A stretch of 64,000 bases of DNA from Mucilaginibacter sp. (GTDB taxonomy: Bacteria; Bacteroidota; Bacteroidia; Sphingobacteriales; Sphingobacteriaceae). The notes under the pieces are model-generated. The model saw only the letters and a list, made by a program, of their open reading frames with translations. It did no database searches and had not been told where the DNA came from. Below, piece by piece: positions 16,801 to 31,207 of this stretch. The stretch covers positions 17,306 through 81,305 of the forward strand of contig DASZVE010000015.1 in the NCBI GenBank assembly GCA_035547095.1, in the 5' to 3' direction. The position numbers and the translations under genes were made by a program. The stretch's first letter is position 1. Each line of letters opens with the position of its first letter.

Positions 16801-17319
16801 ATGGCAAGCAGGCGCAGGCGAAAAAGACAAGCCCGACGAATTTTCAGAAAGATTAAGGGCATATGGATAGTCAAGGCGGTGCTTTATATACTGGGTATAC
16901 TGTCGTTCTTTTACACACAGCGCCAGTACGAGGTGACCATCGTTAGCCTTAGTACGCTGCTGACTATAGGCATTGTGAGCGGTCTGCTGGTTTCATTGAT
17001 ATTGGAACGGAACATAAGATATTACCTGTTTTCGATCATATTTTTTGGCAGCCTGTGTACAGCGGCATTTTTTTGGGTCAATAAAGCGTTATCAGGCAGC
17101 GATGAAATAAAACTTAAGCAGCGTATTCTTTATAAGGCCCTGGCCTCACCTACTATCGAACATTCAAAGGTGACCATCAGTTTTGATAGCTTTACCAAGG
17201 ATATACCCATCAGCAGCGACCAGGAGTTTAACATCGCACAAGCTTCATTTATCATTCTTACCGTACATCCGGGCGGGCTCGGTCATTATATTATCATAAG
17301 CTCGGAGCTGGCGAAGTAG
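16801..17319 (+). CDS. Hypothetical membrane protein
   Basis: A basic N-terminus (MASRRRRKRQARR) is followed by three hydrophobic spans. No recognisable domain. Confidence 0.4.
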   Translation: MASRRRRKRQARRIFRKIKGIWIVKAVLYILGILSFFYTQRQYEVTIVSLSTLLTIGIVSGLLVSLILERNIRYYLFSIIFFGSLCTAAFFWVNKALSGSDEIKLKQRILYKALASPTIEHSKVTISFDSFTKDIPISSDQEFNIAQASFIILTVHPGGLGHYIIISSELAK

Positions 17320-26835: not shown

Positions 26836-27591
26836 TTGCATTTCCCCCTTCATATTCCTTTTGGCAAATCGACGATTCCGTTGCATTTTATATGCGAAAC
26901 AATAGCGTATTTCCTTGGATATAGGTATTATGTCTACCTCCGAAAGCATACCGGGGACCTTATCGGCGACGAAAAAAGGTTTATTATTTTCGCCGGAGCG
27001 ATTTGCGGCGCTTTTTTGGGATCGCACATCGTCGGGGTTCTTGAAAATCCGCCATTGCTGAACGGAATGGGCCTGGTTTATTTTATGGGGAACAGAACGA
27101 TTGTGGGTGGCTTCCTCGGCGGCCTTGCCGGCGTCGAGATCGTCAAGAAGAAAATCGGTGTGACCGTGTCCTCAGGCGACCTGATGGTTTATCCTATCAT
27201 CCTTGCAATGATCATTGGTCGCCTGGGCTGTTTTTTTACCGGGCTGGATGATGGCACGTTTGGTATACCATCGAACCTGCCGTGGGCCATAGATTTTGGT
27301 GATGGAATATACCGCCACCCCACAAACCTATACGAGATCCTGTTTTGGATATTGCTTTGGATATCGTTAAGCCTGTACGAGCGTTACCGGCAATTTACAA
27401 ACGGCTCAAGATTTAAGCTGCTGATGGTGACGTATCTTGTCTTTCGTTTCTTTGTCGAATTTATCAAACCGGATTACTTTTTCAGCATAGGTTTATCCAC
27501 TATCCAAATGGTTTGTCTTACCGGAATTTTGTATTATTACAAGGTGTTGATTTTTCCTTCACGATTATCGCAACCGAAAGCCTATGCCTGA
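26836..27591 (+). CDS. Prolipoprotein diacylglyceryl transferase (Lgt)-family membrane protein, divergent
   Basis: GRLGCFFTGLDDGTFGIPSNLPWAIDFGDGIYRHPTNLYEILF parallels the Lgt GRxGNFxNgE...PW...RHPxQLYE region. The start is TTG and uncertain. Confidence 0.6.
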   Translation: MHFPLHIPFGKSTIPLHFICETIAYFLGYRYYVYLRKHTGDLIGDEKRFIIFAGAICGAFLGSHIVGVLENPPLLNGMGLVYFMGNRTIVGGFLGGLAGVEIVKKKIGVTVSSGDLMVYPIILAMIIGRLGCFFTGLDDGTFGIPSNLPWAIDFGDGIYRHPTNLYEILFWILLWISLSLYERYRQFTNGSRFKLLMVTYLVFRFFVEFIKPDYFFSIGLSTIQMVCLTGILYYYKVLIFPSRLSQPKAYA

Positions 27592-28984
27592 ACGGCCGTA
27601 CATTTACTACGATTTTACACAGAGTATCTGCTCCACATGTTTGAAAAGAGTCGACGCCAAGATCGTGTTCGAAGGAGACAACGTGTATATGCTCAAAACC
27701 TGCCGTGAGCATGGCTTTGAAAAGGTCCTGATAGCAACGGATGCCGATTATTATAAAAGCTGCCGCAATTATGCCAAACGCAGCGAAATGCCGCTCAGAT
27801 TCAATACAAAAACGCATTTCGGCTGTCCATACGACTGCGGCTTATGCCAGGACCACGAGCAGCATTCCTGCCTGACGATCATTGAAGTGACGGACCGCTG
27901 CAATTTGAGCTGCCCGACCTGTTACGCCATGTCGTCGCCGCATTACGGCAGGCACCGTACCCTGGAAGAGATCGAGCAGATGCTGGATGTAATCGTTGCC
28001 AACGAGGGCCAGCCGGACGTGGTGCAGATCAGTGGCGGTGAGCCTACCATCCACCCGCAGTTTTTCGATATATTGAATGTCGCTAAAAGAAAGCCCATCA
28101 GGCATTTAATGGTCAATACTAACGGTATCAGAATAGCTAAAGACGATGCTTTCGCGCAAAAACTGGCTACTTATATGCCGGATTTCGAGATATACCTGCA
28201 ATTCGATTCATTTAAAAAGGAGGTTCTTGAACAGTTGAGAGGTGAAGACCTGCGCGACGTACGAATGAATGCTATTAAGAATCTGAATAAGTACAATCTT
28301 TCTACCACACTGGTGGTAACTCTGCAAAAAGGATTGAATATGGACGAGATCGGCACCATCATCGAATTCGGCCTGAAACAACGCTGCGTTCGCGGGGTTA
28401 CTTTTCAGCCTACACAACAAGCAGGCAGGCTGGAGAATTTTAATACTGAAACTGATCGCTGCACACTTACCGAGGTAAGATCGGCCATACTGGAACAAAC
28501 AAATATTTTTAACAAGCACGATCTTATACCTGTGCCCTGCAATCCGGATGCGCTGGTAATGGGCTACGCGCTTAAGCTGGGGCCGATGGTATTTCCGCTG
28601 ACGAGGCTGATCAATCCGGATGATCTTTTGGATAATTCCAGGAATACTATCGTCTATGAACAGGATGAAGTATTAAAATCACATTTGCTGAAAATGTTCA
28701 GCACGGGTAACTCTGTGGATACAGCAAGCAATCATCTTAAGTCGATCATGTGCTGCCTGCCGATGATAGATGCACCCGAACTAAAATATGAAAACCTGTT
28801 CCGTATCGTCATTATGCAGTTCATCGATGCGCATAATTTCGATGTCCGGGCTATCAAGAAATCGTGTGTGCATATTGTGAACAAGGATATGCACATCATT
28901 CCGTTCGAAACGATGAATCTGTTTTACCGCGACGACAAGATCAATTACCTGAAACAACTGCAAAACGAAATAACCTTATCATGA
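27584..28984 (+). CDS. Radical SAM enzyme with an N-terminal Cys-rich (zinc-ribbon/rubredoxin-like) region and an extra Cys cluster
   Basis: CNLSCPTCYA is the CX3CX2C motif. Upstream lie CSTC...CREH and GCPYDCGLCQDHEQHSC. The gene overlaps the Lgt-like gene by 8 nt. Confidence 0.85.
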   Translation: MPERPYIYYDFTQSICSTCLKRVDAKIVFEGDNVYMLKTCREHGFEKVLIATDADYYKSCRNYAKRSEMPLRFNTKTHFGCPYDCGLCQDHEQHSCLTIIEVTDRCNLSCPTCYAMSSPHYGRHRTLEEIEQMLDVIVANEGQPDVVQISGGEPTIHPQFFDILNVAKRKPIRHLMVNTNGIRIAKDDAFAQKLATYMPDFEIYLQFDSFKKEVLEQLRGEDLRDVRMNAIKNLNKYNLSTTLVVTLQKGLNMDEIGTIIEFGLKQRCVRGVTFQPTQQAGRLENFNTETDRCTLTEVRSAILEQTNIFNKHDLIPVPCNPDALVMGYALKLGPMVFPLTRLINPDDLLDNSRNTIVYEQDEVLKSHLLKMFSTGNSVDTASNHLKSIMCCLPMIDAPELKYENLFRIVIMQFIDAHNFDVRAIKKSCVHIVNKDMHIIPFETMNLFYRDDKINYLKQLQNEITLS

Positions 28985-29238
28985 GCAAAGAAGAAAATAA
29001 AGCGCAGCGAAGGTGGGCCGTTGTAGGGTATAATATCCTGGGAATGGTTGGCTACACACTATTATGCAGGCTGGCTGGCGAAGGAGGTATTCTTTTCGAT
29101 TGTATTCTCCTCGTTGCGCATTTTATTATATGCGTGATCTTGTCTATCGTTTGGAGCAAATGGGAATGGATACTGAGCGCTTTCCTCGTAGTTGCCATAG
29201 GGTTCTCGGCCTGCGTTACGCTATTAACGCTCAATTGA
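28981..29238 (+). CDS. Small (85 aa) membrane protein, translationally coupled to the radical SAM gene
   Basis: The ATG overlaps the radical SAM stop (ATGA). The protein has three hydrophobic spans. Confidence 0.5.
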   Translation: MSKEENKAQRRWAVVGYNILGMVGYTLLCRLAGEGGILFDCILLVAHFIICVILSIVWSKWEWILSAFLVVAIGFSACVTLLTLN

Positions 29239-29284
29239 GGATATTTTTTACAGTATTTGTACTAAAAAATTAATTAATTCAGGT

Positions 29285-29322
29285 AATAATAATCCCCGCA
29301 CCCCGGTGCAGGGATTATTATT
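29285..29322. terminator. Bidirectional terminator hairpin between convergent genes
   Basis: aataataatccccgcacc cc ggtgcagggattattatt forms an 18-bp stem with one mismatch. A/T runs flank it on both sides. Confidence 0.75.
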
Positions 29323-29332
29323 AATTAGCATG

Positions 29333-31207
29333 TTAACTCAAGAAATCAGGCAAATTCTGTTCCTTTAAGATCATACCGTATGTTGTGCTTACCGGGAACG
29401 CCGCTGTGGAGTTTGCGTCTTTTTTAGTAATGCTTTGCCAGCCGGGGAAATCGGATAATACGGCCGACTGCCCGGTTAACTGCGTTGAAAACGCCTGCGT
29501 AACGGAAAATAGCGAACTGTAAACGTTATTGTCGCATATTCCAAAATTGGTAAAATCACTTTGTGAACTATTGGATGAAAGACATCTGAATCTGAAAAAT
29601 AATTGAGTTGGGGAACCATTCGAAATAATGTTGTTGCTTATAACGAAATTAACCGGCAAAGGAAGATTAGTGGCTATAGGATCTGTTTGAATCCCAATTT
29701 GAGCTACTGCATTATTGTAGCTCAGATTATTCAAACAGGTTATCTCGTGGCTGTTATGAAAATAAATGCCATACTGCCCGCTATTGTAAACTTTATTATT
29801 TGCAAGGGTTAAATTTGATGTATTATCATCGCACATTATTCCATTTGCCCAATTCCGCCCCATTGCGCCGTCGGGCGCTCCCAGGCAGTTTAAGAGAATG
29901 TTGTTGCAGATCGTTCGTCCGATATAAACATGCGCACCCGTTCCGCCTACATCGGTATAGATACAGCCGCCGTCGTCGATCACATAACAGGCGGTGTCGA
30001 TATAATTGCTGTCTACCAGGAACGTATCGCCGAGTATGAAGATGCCGCAATAGCCCGTGCGTAATATCGTGTTATTGGTGACCATGTTGTCGGACGCTGT
30101 AGTAACGTTGTTGATCGTAATCCCTGTATAGGCGCCTGCGCCGTTTGTCCCGTCGGTGGACTGCCCCATACCCGCGATAGAACCGGTGTTATTGATTAGA
30201 TTGGCAAATACGTTATTACCGACGGCATCCGAAAGGTAGATGGCGTTATTAACGCAATCGGTTATCGTATTGTCATTGATAGTGCATGTATTCGCTGCTC
30301 CAAAGTAAATGGCATGGACCCCGATGTCGCTGAACACACAATTATTAACCTGGATATTAGAGCTTGCTGAGTTGCCGTTTATGGCGTAACCGTTCGCACC
30401 CTGGAAACTGATATCGGTGAAGACGTTATAGCTCCTCGCTGCCGAAAAGGATACCAGCGAATCGGTTACGCTTACCTGTATGGTGCCGGCGGGGCCCGAA
30501 GTAAACCACATGCTCAAGGTTTTTGTTGTTGGGTTATAACTCCAGTCGCCAGCTTTGGCAAGCGTACTCTGGTGGTTTTGTACAAAAAAGCCATAGCCGT
30601 TGGTGGGCGTCAATTGGTTGGTGCCGGTATAGGTTATCGATGTGGATGTTTCGGCGGTGATCGTTCCCCGGGTCAGGCCCCAGTTGGTTTTTCGTATCAC
30701 TACTTCGCCGCCGACATAAGTAGTGGGCAGCGAGCCGCTTGCAAAGCTGATCCCTGTGGTCCCCGTCGAGCCGGTATAGGTGATGTACCCTGTGGCCGGA
30801 TACCTGCCCAGCGGCGAAATAGCGTTGTTGTACAAAAGTACATTAATCATCGAAGCCGGAAAATGGGTAGCGTCGGTAATCGTCCACACATTTGAGGTGC
30901 CGACCTGTGTCCAGCCGGTAAGCGGAACGGTGAAAAACCCCGTGATTAGCGGGTTAACACCGGTACCATAAGCTCCAAAAGTGATCGGGCTGTTATTGGC
31001 GCCGCTCTCGCCGATGGTTAAAACCCCGCCGGCATGACCCGATGTGGTATCCCAGGTATTCCATACCCCGCCGCGATTGAATAAAACGGTGTCGCCTGCT
31101 AAAAGAACTTGCGTGGAGACCCGGGTTAATGATTTCCAGGCTGCGCCCGGAGAAGTGCCGGCATTCGTGTCGACACCTGCTGCTGAATCAACATAATAAG
31201 TGGCCAT
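29333..31207 (-). CDS. Right-handed parallel beta-helix repeat protein (polysaccharide lyase / tailspike-like), no signal peptide
   Basis: The N-terminus is MATYYVDSAAGVDTNAGTSPGAAWKSLTRV. Repeated N-x-I/V-x-N turn motifs occur (INDNTITDCVNNAIY, ANLINNTG, NNVTTASDNMVTNNTI). Confidence 0.7.
   Translation of the reverse strand: MATYYVDSAAGVDTNAGTSPGAAWKSLTRVSTQVLLAGDTVLFNRGGVWNTWDTTSGHAGGVLTIGESGANNSPITFGAYGTGVNPLITGFFTVPLTGWTQVGTSNVWTITDATHFPASMINVLLYNNAISPLGRYPATGYITYTGSTGTTGISFASGSLPTTYVGGEVVIRKTNWGLTRGTITAETSTSITYTGTNQLTPTNGYGFFVQNHQSTLAKAGDWSYNPTTKTLSMWFTSGPAGTIQVSVTDSLVSFSAARSYNVFTDISFQGANGYAINGNSASSNIQVNNCVFSDIGVHAIYFGAANTCTINDNTITDCVNNAIYLSDAVGNNVFANLINNTGSIAGMGQSTDGTNGAGAYTGITINNVTTASDNMVTNNTILRTGYCGIFILGDTFLVDSNYIDTACYVIDDGGCIYTDVGGTGAHVYIGRTICNNILLNCLGAPDGAMGRNWANGIMCDDNTSNLTLANNKVYNSGQYGIYFHNSHEITCLNNLSYNNAVAQIGIQTDPIATNLPLPVNFVISNNIISNGSPTQLFFRFRCLSSNSSQSDFTNFGICDNNVYSSLFSVTQAFSTQLTGQSAVLSDFPGWQSITKKDANSTAAFPVSTTYGMILKEQNLPDFLS

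Follow-up and report, generated by a model that had tools for sequence, protein, structure and literature searches.

We analysed a 64,000-nt window (the whole stretch of DNA examined here) of a Mucilaginibacter sp. genome (GenBank:GCA_035547095.1), corresponding to positions 17,306 to 81,305 on the forward strand of contig DASZVE010000015.1; unless stated otherwise, positions are those of the window. In the region of 26836–29238, three genes run in one direction and overlap at both junctions, by 8 nt between genes 1 and 2 and by ATGA between genes 2 and 3. They encode a paralogue of the lipoprotein-lipidating transferase Lgt, an enzyme of the radical S-adenosylmethionine (SAM) type resembling the archaeal tetraether lipid synthase Tes (GDGT-MAS), and a small membrane protein, hereafter called the miniprotein. 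The features of the locus are as follows (aa, amino acids; TM, transmembrane).

26836–27591, + strand: gene 1, Lgt paralogue, a seven-helix membrane transferase of 251 aa, with a TTG start
27584–28984, + strand: gene 2, GDGT-MAS/Tes-like radical SAM enzyme of 466 aa, without a TM segment
28981–29238, + strand: gene 3, miniprotein of 85 aa with three TM helices, the proposed substrate or carrier
27584–27591, + strand: overlap of the gene 1 stop with the gene 2 start, 8 nt (ATGCCTGA), translational coupling
28981–28984, + strand: overlap of the gene 2 stop with the gene 3 start, ATGA, the same -3 junction being present in many loci
27899–27922, + strand: radical SAM cluster motif of gene 2, C106-N-L-S-C110-P-T-C113, without variation in the family alignment
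29197–29214, + strand: lipobox-like motif I73-G-F-S-A-C78 of gene 3, with the Cys78 codon TGC at 29212–29214, 7 residues from the C-terminus
29284–29323, no strand assigned: hairpin (13+4 bp) between convergent genes, likely a bidirectional terminator

Both overlaps had been reported in a first-pass annotation of this DNA and could be read directly from the sequence. The motifs it had listed were likewise all found, namely GRLGCFF and RHPTNLYE in gene 1, and CNLSCPTC (residues 106–113), C16xxC19...C40xxH43 and GCPYDCGLCQDHEQHSC in gene 2. There is support for the TTG start of gene 1, since homologues from other genera start at the matching M-x-F-P-V position. Overlaps of -8, -11 or -29 nt between genes 1 and 2, together with the junction of gene 2 with a small open reading frame (ORF), were seen again in dozens of other genomes, and because of this recurrence chance is excluded by a wide margin as an explanation for the three-gene arrangement.

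The distribution of the genes was determined in a phylum sample of 401 evenly chosen Bacteroidota genomes, among which related genomes are not independent. The radical SAM gene was patchy yet highly conserved, occurring in 31 of the 401 genomes and 22 of the 179 genera, and the Lgt paralogue was present in 30 genomes. All 29 genomes with a radical SAM gene at least 40% identical to gene 2 contained the Lgt paralogue, compared with one of the 370 genomes without a radical SAM match; its profile scores were 280–374 bits in the genomes with the radical SAM gene, versus 60 bits or less for housekeeping Lgt. At loci of other genomes in this sample with a radical SAM gene at least 58% identical to gene 2, the Lgt paralogue was located directly upstream in 25 of 27, and in some genomes it was unlinked to the radical SAM gene and still encoded elsewhere. 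A similar arrangement was found in the 80 best GTDB loci. In 75 of them the paralogue was upstream and in the same orientation, and two of the remaining five had less than 150 nt of upstream sequence. The 80 loci span Mucilaginibacter, Pedobacter, Chitinophagaceae, many Flavobacteriaceae, Hymenobacter, Lewinella and others. The co-occurrence pattern holds across many families with patchy presence, despite the relatedness of some genomes. All-against-all clustering of the flanking ORFs of the 80 loci returned genes 1 and 2 and antisense shadow ORFs, and no other recurrent neighbour. The trio is a conserved, self-contained module. The first-pass annotation had proposed that gene-neighbourhood conservation be checked across Bacteroidota, and the linkage to the Lgt-like gene proved to be conserved there and beyond, up to fusions of Lgt with the radical SAM enzyme described below. 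In one genus the order was gene 1, small gene, gene 2, with the small gene keeping its Cys motif.

It was also noticed that in Hymenobacter and some other lineages the Lgt paralogue and the radical SAM gene are 0.7–2.4 kb apart, with unrelated sequence in between (loci L053, L057, L080, L098, L103, L108, L110, L111 and L113). An orphan Lgt paralogue (L128:6653-7498, minus strand, in G035:C10) scored 245 bits on the family profile; the partner radical SAM gene was not detected in its genome, and no small Cys-motif ORF adjoined it. This copy may be a relic of a lost module.

Gene 1 matched the Pfam LGT family (PF01790) with 77.9 bits (gathering threshold, 24.9) over profile positions 15–234 of 240, and it scored far below the cut-offs of all NCBIfam Lgt equivalog models, including TIGR00544 (30 versus 118.9 bits) and NF000778 (45.5 versus 334 bits). 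A profile of 17 gene 1 family members matched E. coli Lgt (5AZB) with an E-value of 7.7e-13, and the AlphaFold2 model of gene 1 (predicted local distance difference test [pLDDT], 88) had 5AZB as its sole significant match in the PDB (E = 8.6e-8; template modelling score [TM-score], 0.62). R143, G154, Y235, R239 and E243 of E. coli Lgt correspond to R129, G143, Y200, R204 and E208 of gene 1; the catalytic and donor-binding residues are conserved in the 17-member alignment, with Asp in place of E208 in some members, and the RHP..YE motif is retained. Gene 1 thus shares with E. coli Lgt (5AZB/5AZC) the Pfam family, the seven-helix fold and the catalytic residues, whereas it differs in two substitutions (Y26 to H17 and H103 to V90), in being 40 residues shorter, with little left of the periplasmic head that separates TM4 from TM5, and in being linked with a radical SAM gene as well as with miniproteins whose box is non-canonical. 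The topology should equal that of E. coli Lgt, because a K-rich loop of gene 1 aligns with the cytoplasmic RRTKR loop. A separate, better-scoring housekeeping Lgt is encoded on another contig of the same genome (G000:C23:159114-160217). Gene 1 is a true Lgt-family paralogue distinct from the housekeeping enzyme, and the earlier description of it as keeping the Lgt core yet diverging agrees with the PF01790 match, the scores below the equivalog cut-offs and the second Lgt elsewhere.

The Cys of GRxGC, which stands in the position of N146 in E. coli Lgt, was considered as a hallmark of the paralogue and dropped, because the housekeeping Lgt of this genome has GRIGC too. The housekeeping Lgt (G000:C23:159114-160217; L001:1207-2310) lies within a 422-aa open frame and has a long Cys- and Trp-rich insert, which contains WMWGFKFPHNINMMGEQIPGCQLTNYCINKTHCYCYELPLP, between GRIGC and the conserved Pro-x-Tyr-Pro..Tyr-Glu; E. 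coli Lgt is without this insert.

Gene 2 contains the Pfam domains PF23545 (Zn_ribbon_HMPTM) and PF04055 (Radical_SAM). Its top-scoring NCBIfam model was TrsS (NF045646), with 319.4 bits against a cut-off of 490 and residues 12–452 aligned to model positions 3–437 of 441, and the NCBIfam Tes model (NF045702) gave 269.9 bits against a cut-off of 450, from model position 2 to about 312–320 of 486. Neither a RiPP recognition element (RiPP, ribosomally synthesized and post-translationally modified peptide) nor a SPASM/twitch domain was found above cut-off in Pfam and NCBIfam. A phmmer search of the PDB matched gene 2 to the M. jannaschii GDGT-MAS (7TOL) with an E-value of 2.5e-59 and 28–29% identity. 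When the AlphaFold2 model (pLDDT, 79; predicted TM-score, 0.84) was compared with Foldseek, it aligned over the whole chain with 7TOM/7TOL (TM-score of 0.80 by query and 0.75 by target), and the remaining radical SAM structures matched at the core alone, with TM-scores of 0.39 or less. As judged from this model, gene 2 is predicted to have the full four-domain GDGT-MAS/Tes fold.

Three of the metal sites are conserved in gene 2, namely 1) the rubredoxin-like site (C16, C19, C40 and H43), 2) the N-terminal cluster (C81, C85 and C88 plus a His), and 3) the radical SAM cluster (C106, C110 and C113). The C-terminal cluster is altered. Most of the superfamily has the cysteines KCC...PFC, of which the gene 2 clade retains C428 alone; relative to Tes, a Met and C428 align, while the neighbouring Cys is Ile, CC has become SC and PFC has become PFE. 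Tyr459, invariant in archaeal Tes, is Ile in gene 2. In place of the canonical cluster cysteines, C319, C390 and C391 are conserved in the clade, and C390/C391 lie in the part of the model that has low confidence (residues 373–398). The Met equivalent to the labile Met439 of GDGT-MAS is retained within the Bacteroidota orthologues of gene 2, and about 35 residues of the second lipid-pocket region are absent from it. Compared with Tes/GDGT-MAS (MJ0619; 7TOL/7TOM; PMC9433317, PMC8941075), gene 2 therefore shares the four-domain architecture, the rubredoxin-like CX2CX20CX2H, the C-X3-C-X2-C plus His and the CX3CX2C motif, but it is bacterial, is paired with Lgt (a pairing not described for archaeal Tes), has altered C-terminal ligands and belongs to a clade of its own.

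This clade was delineated by an exhaustive search for gene 2 homologues, which gave 667 clusters (50% identity) at E <=1e-30, and by a midpoint-rooted maximum-likelihood tree of 79 full-length representatives, verified archaeal Tes not being among them. Gene 2 fell into a clade of 15 members with a support of 100/100, apart from both true TrsS and the Tes-like clade. TrsS is a selenoprotein family. Members of the true TrsS clade (P0318 and P0320) scored 545–607 bits on the TrsS model, and three TrsS loci from Firmicutes and Fusobacteria had adjoining genes for AMP-binding, methyltransferase and C_GCAxxG proteins; an Lgt-like gene was found in none of the three. Gene 2 thus belongs to the same superfamily as TrsS and aligns end to end with its model (NF045646), but differs in clade, in neighbours and in having no selenocysteine. 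These placements, obtained from profiles, structure and tree, put gene 2 in the MJ0619 "HMPTM" superfamily, in line with the resemblance to Tes/GDGT-MAS (COG1964-type) suggested in the first-pass annotation; assignment to a cofactor-maturase family, which would have spoken against that proposal, did not result from any of the three.

Gene 2 was rejected as Tes on account of its score below the cut-off, its separate clade and its different C-terminal ligands, and as TrsS on account of its score below the cut-off, its separate clade and its other gene context. Selenocysteine was rejected for the gene 2 family, as the in-frame TGA/TAA flagged in three homologues were terminal stops and the ORFs were intact.

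Around true TrsS genes (L133, L134 and L135; P0385, P0413 and P0360), class I methyltransferases, C_GCAxxG_C_C proteins, xanthine-dehydrogenase-like genes and AMP-binding enzymes were observed, and fusions of some TrsS relatives with DUF5714, or with NTP_transf_3 and HD domains, were also noted; the system is a separate one and likewise uncharacterised.

In metagenomic loci, an Lgt-like gene flanked the radical SAM gene in 18 of 24 loci of clade A (at least four of the six exceptions being without flanking sequence), in the single locus of clade B, in five of six loci of the P0260 type and in none of 13 loci of clade18. Pairing with Lgt as a trait of the whole superfamily was ruled out by the 0/13 clade18 loci and the 0/3 TrsS loci.

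For gene 3 and its positional homologues, no Pfam or NCBIfam family was found. The homologues have 42–138 aa, one to four TM helices and almost no common sequence, and they are present in nearly all loci as one to three tandem, divergent copies. Their dN/dS ratio (nonsynonymous to synonymous substitution rates) was 0.04–0.30 in four groups of related species, so that the miniproteins are real genes under purifying selection. What they share lies at the C-terminal end: in 68 of the 80 GTDB loci, at least one miniprotein ends with a TM helix, G-x-[G/S]-x-C and a short tail of 3–22, mostly 5–11, residues past the Cys, the consensus being V-Y-L-[LI]-I-G-[FL]-G-[IAT]-C-[GAS]-x-[LIM]-[LM]. Gene 3 itself ends with VVAIGFSAC78-VTLLTLN. 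With the strict motif, 94 ORFs adjoining the radical SAM gene were counted in these 68 loci, compared with a background of 0.24% of the ORFs of 40–150 aa in the own genome. The motif Cys was the sole Cys in 65 of 114 miniproteins. The segment preceding the last TM helix had a mean net charge of +1.7 and the tail was neutral. At position -1 to the Cys, Gly, Ala or Ser was found in about a quarter, and Ile, Thr or Val often.

As a canonical lipoprotein precursor, with an N-terminal signal peptide ending in [LVI][ASTVI][GAS]C, gene 3 does not qualify, its box being at the C-terminal end. Read from its sequence, the end of the miniprotein shows the n-region/h-region/box layout of a lipoprotein signal peptide, and the Cys is predicted to lie at the periplasmic face, where Lgt works. 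Because the lipobox-like Cys is conserved, the paralogous copies are in tandem and the remaining sequence drifts, the miniprotein appears to be a dedicated substrate or carrier of the module. Gene 3 had been described at first as a small integral membrane protein, which agrees with its three TM helices; the passive role implied there is not upheld, as the conserved lipobox-like Cys points to a substrate or carrier.

More distant relatives of the module have been found. A five-gene variant, in the order radical SAM gene, ICMT/PEMT-like methyltransferase, DUF4395, Lgt-like gene and small protein, encodes a radical SAM enzyme about 41% identical to gene 2; it was found in two more phylum-sample genomes, one of which matches Chlorobiales sequences at 98% identity, and also in Ignavibacteriales, Prevotellaceae and a bacterium of the candidate phyla radiation (Candidatus Falkowbacteria). 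Its small proteins have the same Cys motif near the C-terminus, in VFGGC-LVML, AFGGC-MLVI and LLFGAC-MVGI. A third system (L037), with a radical SAM enzyme 33% identical and an Lgt-like protein 25% identical, has a 140-aa protein with three TM helices encoded between both enzyme genes and ending with LLSGGMC-IFLPQPL.

Several further observations were made on these variants. The DUF4395 proteins of the five-gene variant (L129:7010-7459, L131:6988-7452, L132:7050-7499 and L035:7992-8489) have a conserved Cys-rich tail, [AS]x-G-F-C-[PT]-A-x-K-L-Y-x-C-x5-C-C, and are a second conserved-cysteine membrane protein of this variant. In one genome, a gene for an ApbC/Mrp-type Fe-S cluster carrier (L035:9459-10568) is located directly 3' of the five-gene variant; from this single occurrence, the carrier may supply clusters to the radical SAM enzyme. 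In the P0260-type clade the gene order is radical SAM, then Lgt-like, and the candidate small proteins (L183:6325-6642 and L179:3914-4360) have an N-terminal CxxC...CxxC zinc-ribbon-like segment, TM helices and a C-terminal Cys. Small Cys-motif proteins were plausible in two of the five loci examined in this clade and absent from three, the motif being looser, and their presence there is suggestive.

The short, variable, multi-copy genes beside tailoring enzymes are what is looked for in RiPP-type precursors, and the earlier remark that no resemblance to a RiPP pathway is apparent runs counter to the Cys motif, the tandem copies and the sequence drift, which suggest the logic of a precursor and its tailoring enzymes. 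One explanation along these lines is a released lipopeptide: signal peptidase II would cut before the lipidated Cys and free a diacylglyceryl-Cys peptide of mostly 5–11 residues, the N-terminal helices acting as leader, with tailoring by the radical SAM enzyme and, in the five-gene variant, by the ICMT-like methyltransferase. Besides the precursor-like genes, the last helix is laid out as a lipoprotein signal peptide, the boxes FGGC and FGAC of the five-gene variant fit canonical signal peptidase II sites, and the ICMT family methylates lipidated cysteine carboxylates. However, the -1 residue of the main clade, in most cases Ile, Thr or Val, suits signal peptidase II badly; ICMT requires a C-terminal lipidated Cys, so that further cleavage would be needed here; the tails are not conserved as expected of a bioactive core; and in the flanks of the 80 loci neither a protease nor an exporter nor an immunity gene recurs with the module. 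We consider release of such a peptide quite unlikely, and its tailoring by both enzymes equally so.

Two single-polypeptide fusions were identified, each with an N-terminal LGT domain, a linker, a zinc ribbon and a radical SAM domain, the radical SAM part being joined to the cytoplasmic C-terminus of the LGT domain. One (P0243, with its cluster mates P0510 and P0511, on three contigs) has the C-terminal pattern of clade A and a gene 1-type LGT domain, and the other (P0390) belongs to another clade and has the canonical KCC...FC pattern. The existence of two independent natural fusions argues strongly for joint action of the Lgt paralogue and the radical SAM enzyme at the membrane.

The same fusions bear on a second explanation, a pure membrane-lipid pathway, in which the Lgt paralogue would move a diacylglyceryl or glyceryl-lipid group to a non-protein acceptor, the radical SAM enzyme would couple or modify the tails (diabolic-acid or tetraether-type), and the miniprotein would be a scaffold or docking subunit whose Cys is structural. 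The radical SAM enzyme, being without a TM segment, would need a membrane partner, but in the fusions the Lgt domain already tethers it to the membrane. A scaffold should moreover keep an interaction surface, and the miniproteins drift except for a Cys motif resembling an Lgt acceptor; tandem divergent copies would also be unusual for a stoichiometric subunit. The full-length GDGT-MAS fold of gene 2, the phospholipid-donor-binding Lgt residues retained in gene 1 and the ICMT/PEMT-family lipid methyltransferases of the five-gene variant are all consistent with such a pathway, which on the whole we regard as unlikely.

The reading that we prefer, and to which we give an even chance, is that the miniprotein is lipidated on its Cys by the Lgt paralogue, after which the hydrocarbon tails are remodelled by the radical SAM enzyme. 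In the first step, gene 3 would be inserted into the inner membrane, its last helix being oriented in-to-out, as suggested by the charge bias, so that Cys78 would reach the periplasmic leaflet and be placed there as the lipobox cysteine is in a prolipoprotein. In the second, the Lgt paralogue would transfer diacylglyceryl from a phospholipid to the thiol of Cys78, as its homology and conserved catalytic residues suggest. A dedicated paralogue would be needed for this, because the box G-x-G/S-x-C, often bulky at -1, is not the canonical [LVI][ASTVI][GAS]C. In the third, the cytoplasmic radical SAM enzyme would be held at the membrane beside the Lgt paralogue; by analogy with GDGT-MAS, whose full-length fold it is predicted to have, its hydrophobic pockets would take up the hydrocarbon tails, a terminal carbon that is not activated would lose a hydrogen, and a new C-C (or C-S) bond would be formed, by which either the two acyl chains might be closed into a macrocycle or an acyl chain might be tied to a lipid in the other leaflet. 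The order of the second and third steps may also be the reverse, the donor lipid being remodelled first. Iso-branched fatty acids are typical chains of Bacteroidota. The end of an iso-branched fatty acid resembles that of a phytanyl chain, a point that has been made for bacterial Tes homologues (PMC8941075). The first-pass annotation had suggested chemistry on a membrane lipid or on the lipid moiety of lipoproteins, and this broader proposal is supported by the families, the folds, the conserved linkage and the fusions. A more specific outcome, that the radical SAM enzyme welds acyl chain ends so that the miniprotein becomes stapled through its Cys to a macrocyclic or membrane-spanning lipid, a new protein-lipid chemistry, is possible though somewhat doubtful.

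Several points weigh against lipidation of the miniprotein followed by tail remodelling. Both the radical SAM enzyme and SAM reside in the cytoplasm, while for the Cys of the miniprotein a periplasmic position is predicted; because they are on opposite sides of the membrane, the enzyme could not touch the Cys and would have to reach the tails or the donor lipid. Because two of the three canonical C-terminal cluster cysteines and the Tyr invariant in archaea are replaced in the gene 2 clade, the reaction may differ from the coupling carried out by Tes. Cleavage of the miniprotein by signal peptidase II is doubtful and may not occur, -1 often being Ile, Val or Thr. We know of no report of membrane-spanning or macrocyclic lipids from these genera. 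Finally, the conserved Cys of the miniprotein could equally be a catalytic or carrier thiol.

The last of these points can be developed into a third explanation, in which the Cys of the miniprotein would hold a lipid intermediate covalently while the radical SAM enzyme works, the product being released later, so that the miniprotein would be a membrane analogue of an acyl carrier. It has a precedent in GDGT-MAS, which forms an intermediate between a substrate carbon and a cluster sulfur (PMC9433317), and the Cys might replace the role of the C-terminal Fe-S cluster sulfur in a clade that has lost two of the three canonical cysteines of that cluster; the single invariant Cys is also the sole constraint on the miniprotein. 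On the other hand, this Cys is predicted from the topology to lie at the periplasmic end and distant from the radical SAM enzyme in the cytoplasm, no hydrolase for release belongs to the module, none recurring in the flanks of the 80 loci, and the L037 and P0390 lineages retain the canonical cluster cysteines yet pair with Lgt. A carrier thiol of this kind seems to us very unlikely, and so does the substitution of its Cys for the cluster sulfur.

Lipidation of the miniprotein with subsequent tail remodelling can be compared with three known or predicted systems in addition to those above. In canonical lipoprotein maturation (Lgt, signal peptidase II and N-acyltransferase), the substrate, like the miniprotein, has a positive segment, a hydrophobic helix and a box of small residues ending with Cys, but this lipobox is N-terminal, whereas in the miniproteins, which have 2–4 TM helices, the last helix ends with the box, only 2–25 residues follow the Cys, and position -1 is often bulky; the radical SAM step is without counterpart in the canonical pathway, and here a dedicated paralogue is encoded beside its presumed substrate. 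In eukaryotic and archaeal CaaX processing, a functional analogy only, the acceptor Cys is likewise near the C-terminus and a methyltransferase of the ICMT/PEMT family is shared with the five-gene variant; the donor enzyme there is a prenyltransferase, whereas here it is of Lgt type, no tail-removing protease was seen, and ICMT is absent from the three-gene form. The Skillet-1 lipocone system, the nearest concept found and itself a prediction only (PMC12419801), likewise places a dedicated lipid-transfer enzyme beside a protein with a non-canonical lipobox ("GS"), but its enzyme belongs to an unrelated family, the acceptor is Ser, the extracellular domains are large, and a radical SAM enzyme is lacking. 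We tentatively regard the present module as lipoprotein-type lipidation with an added radical SAM step; that its chemistry is of a new kind is possible though somewhat doubtful.

Since 2022, Tes homologues of bacteria have been known from bioinformatics alone, with none characterised, and they have been used to infer the producers of the branched tetraether lipids behind palaeoclimate proxies (PMC8941075; bioRxiv 10.1101/2024.06.25.600576; PMC13459092); a 2026 review of lipid-modifying radical SAM enzymes lists them only as bioinformatic detections (PMC13459092). The published thresholds for a Tes homologue are E <1e-50, >20% identity and >400 aa, with M. acetivorans Tes as the BLASTP query, and gene 2 probably counts as one under these criteria, as judged from the comparison with the M. 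jannaschii enzyme and not from the M. acetivorans query. In the literature, subscription-only papers not being covered, no published description was found of a link between Lgt and a Tes-like enzyme or of these miniproteins, in keeping with the earlier remark that no characterised system has this trio.

In several whole clades, Tes homologues come firmly tied to an Lgt paralogue and a Cys miniprotein, sometimes with fusion to the Lgt, which suggests protein-linked lipid chemistry and not bulk lipid synthesis, and surveys of genomes for tetraether producers may need to have the Lgt-linked clades excluded. Bacteroidota that are cultured, aerobic and in part genetically tractable widely carry one of these clades, and a three-gene system with a single-residue handle (Cys78) makes the function of a bacterial Tes homologue testable. 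If the stapled-lipid chemistry were true, a large share of the bacterial "Tes homologues" counted as branched-tetraether markers would make something else. In lipoprotein biology, an Lgt paralogue dedicated to a substrate of its own would be a first, as would a radical SAM step within a lipoprotein-type pathway.

Downstream of the module, a convergent gene on the minus strand (29333–31207) encodes a 624-aa right-handed beta-helix protein (PF13229) without a signal peptide, which is not kept beside the module in other genomes and ends 10 nt from the hairpin. The 100-nt region of this hairpin had a folding energy of -24.4 kcal/mol (z = -3.2 versus shuffled sequences). A simple terminator scan did not flag the hairpin at 29284–29323, because its A/T runs belong to the stem. 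The z value is in accord with the strong terminator noted earlier at this position, for which a bidirectional role is likely.

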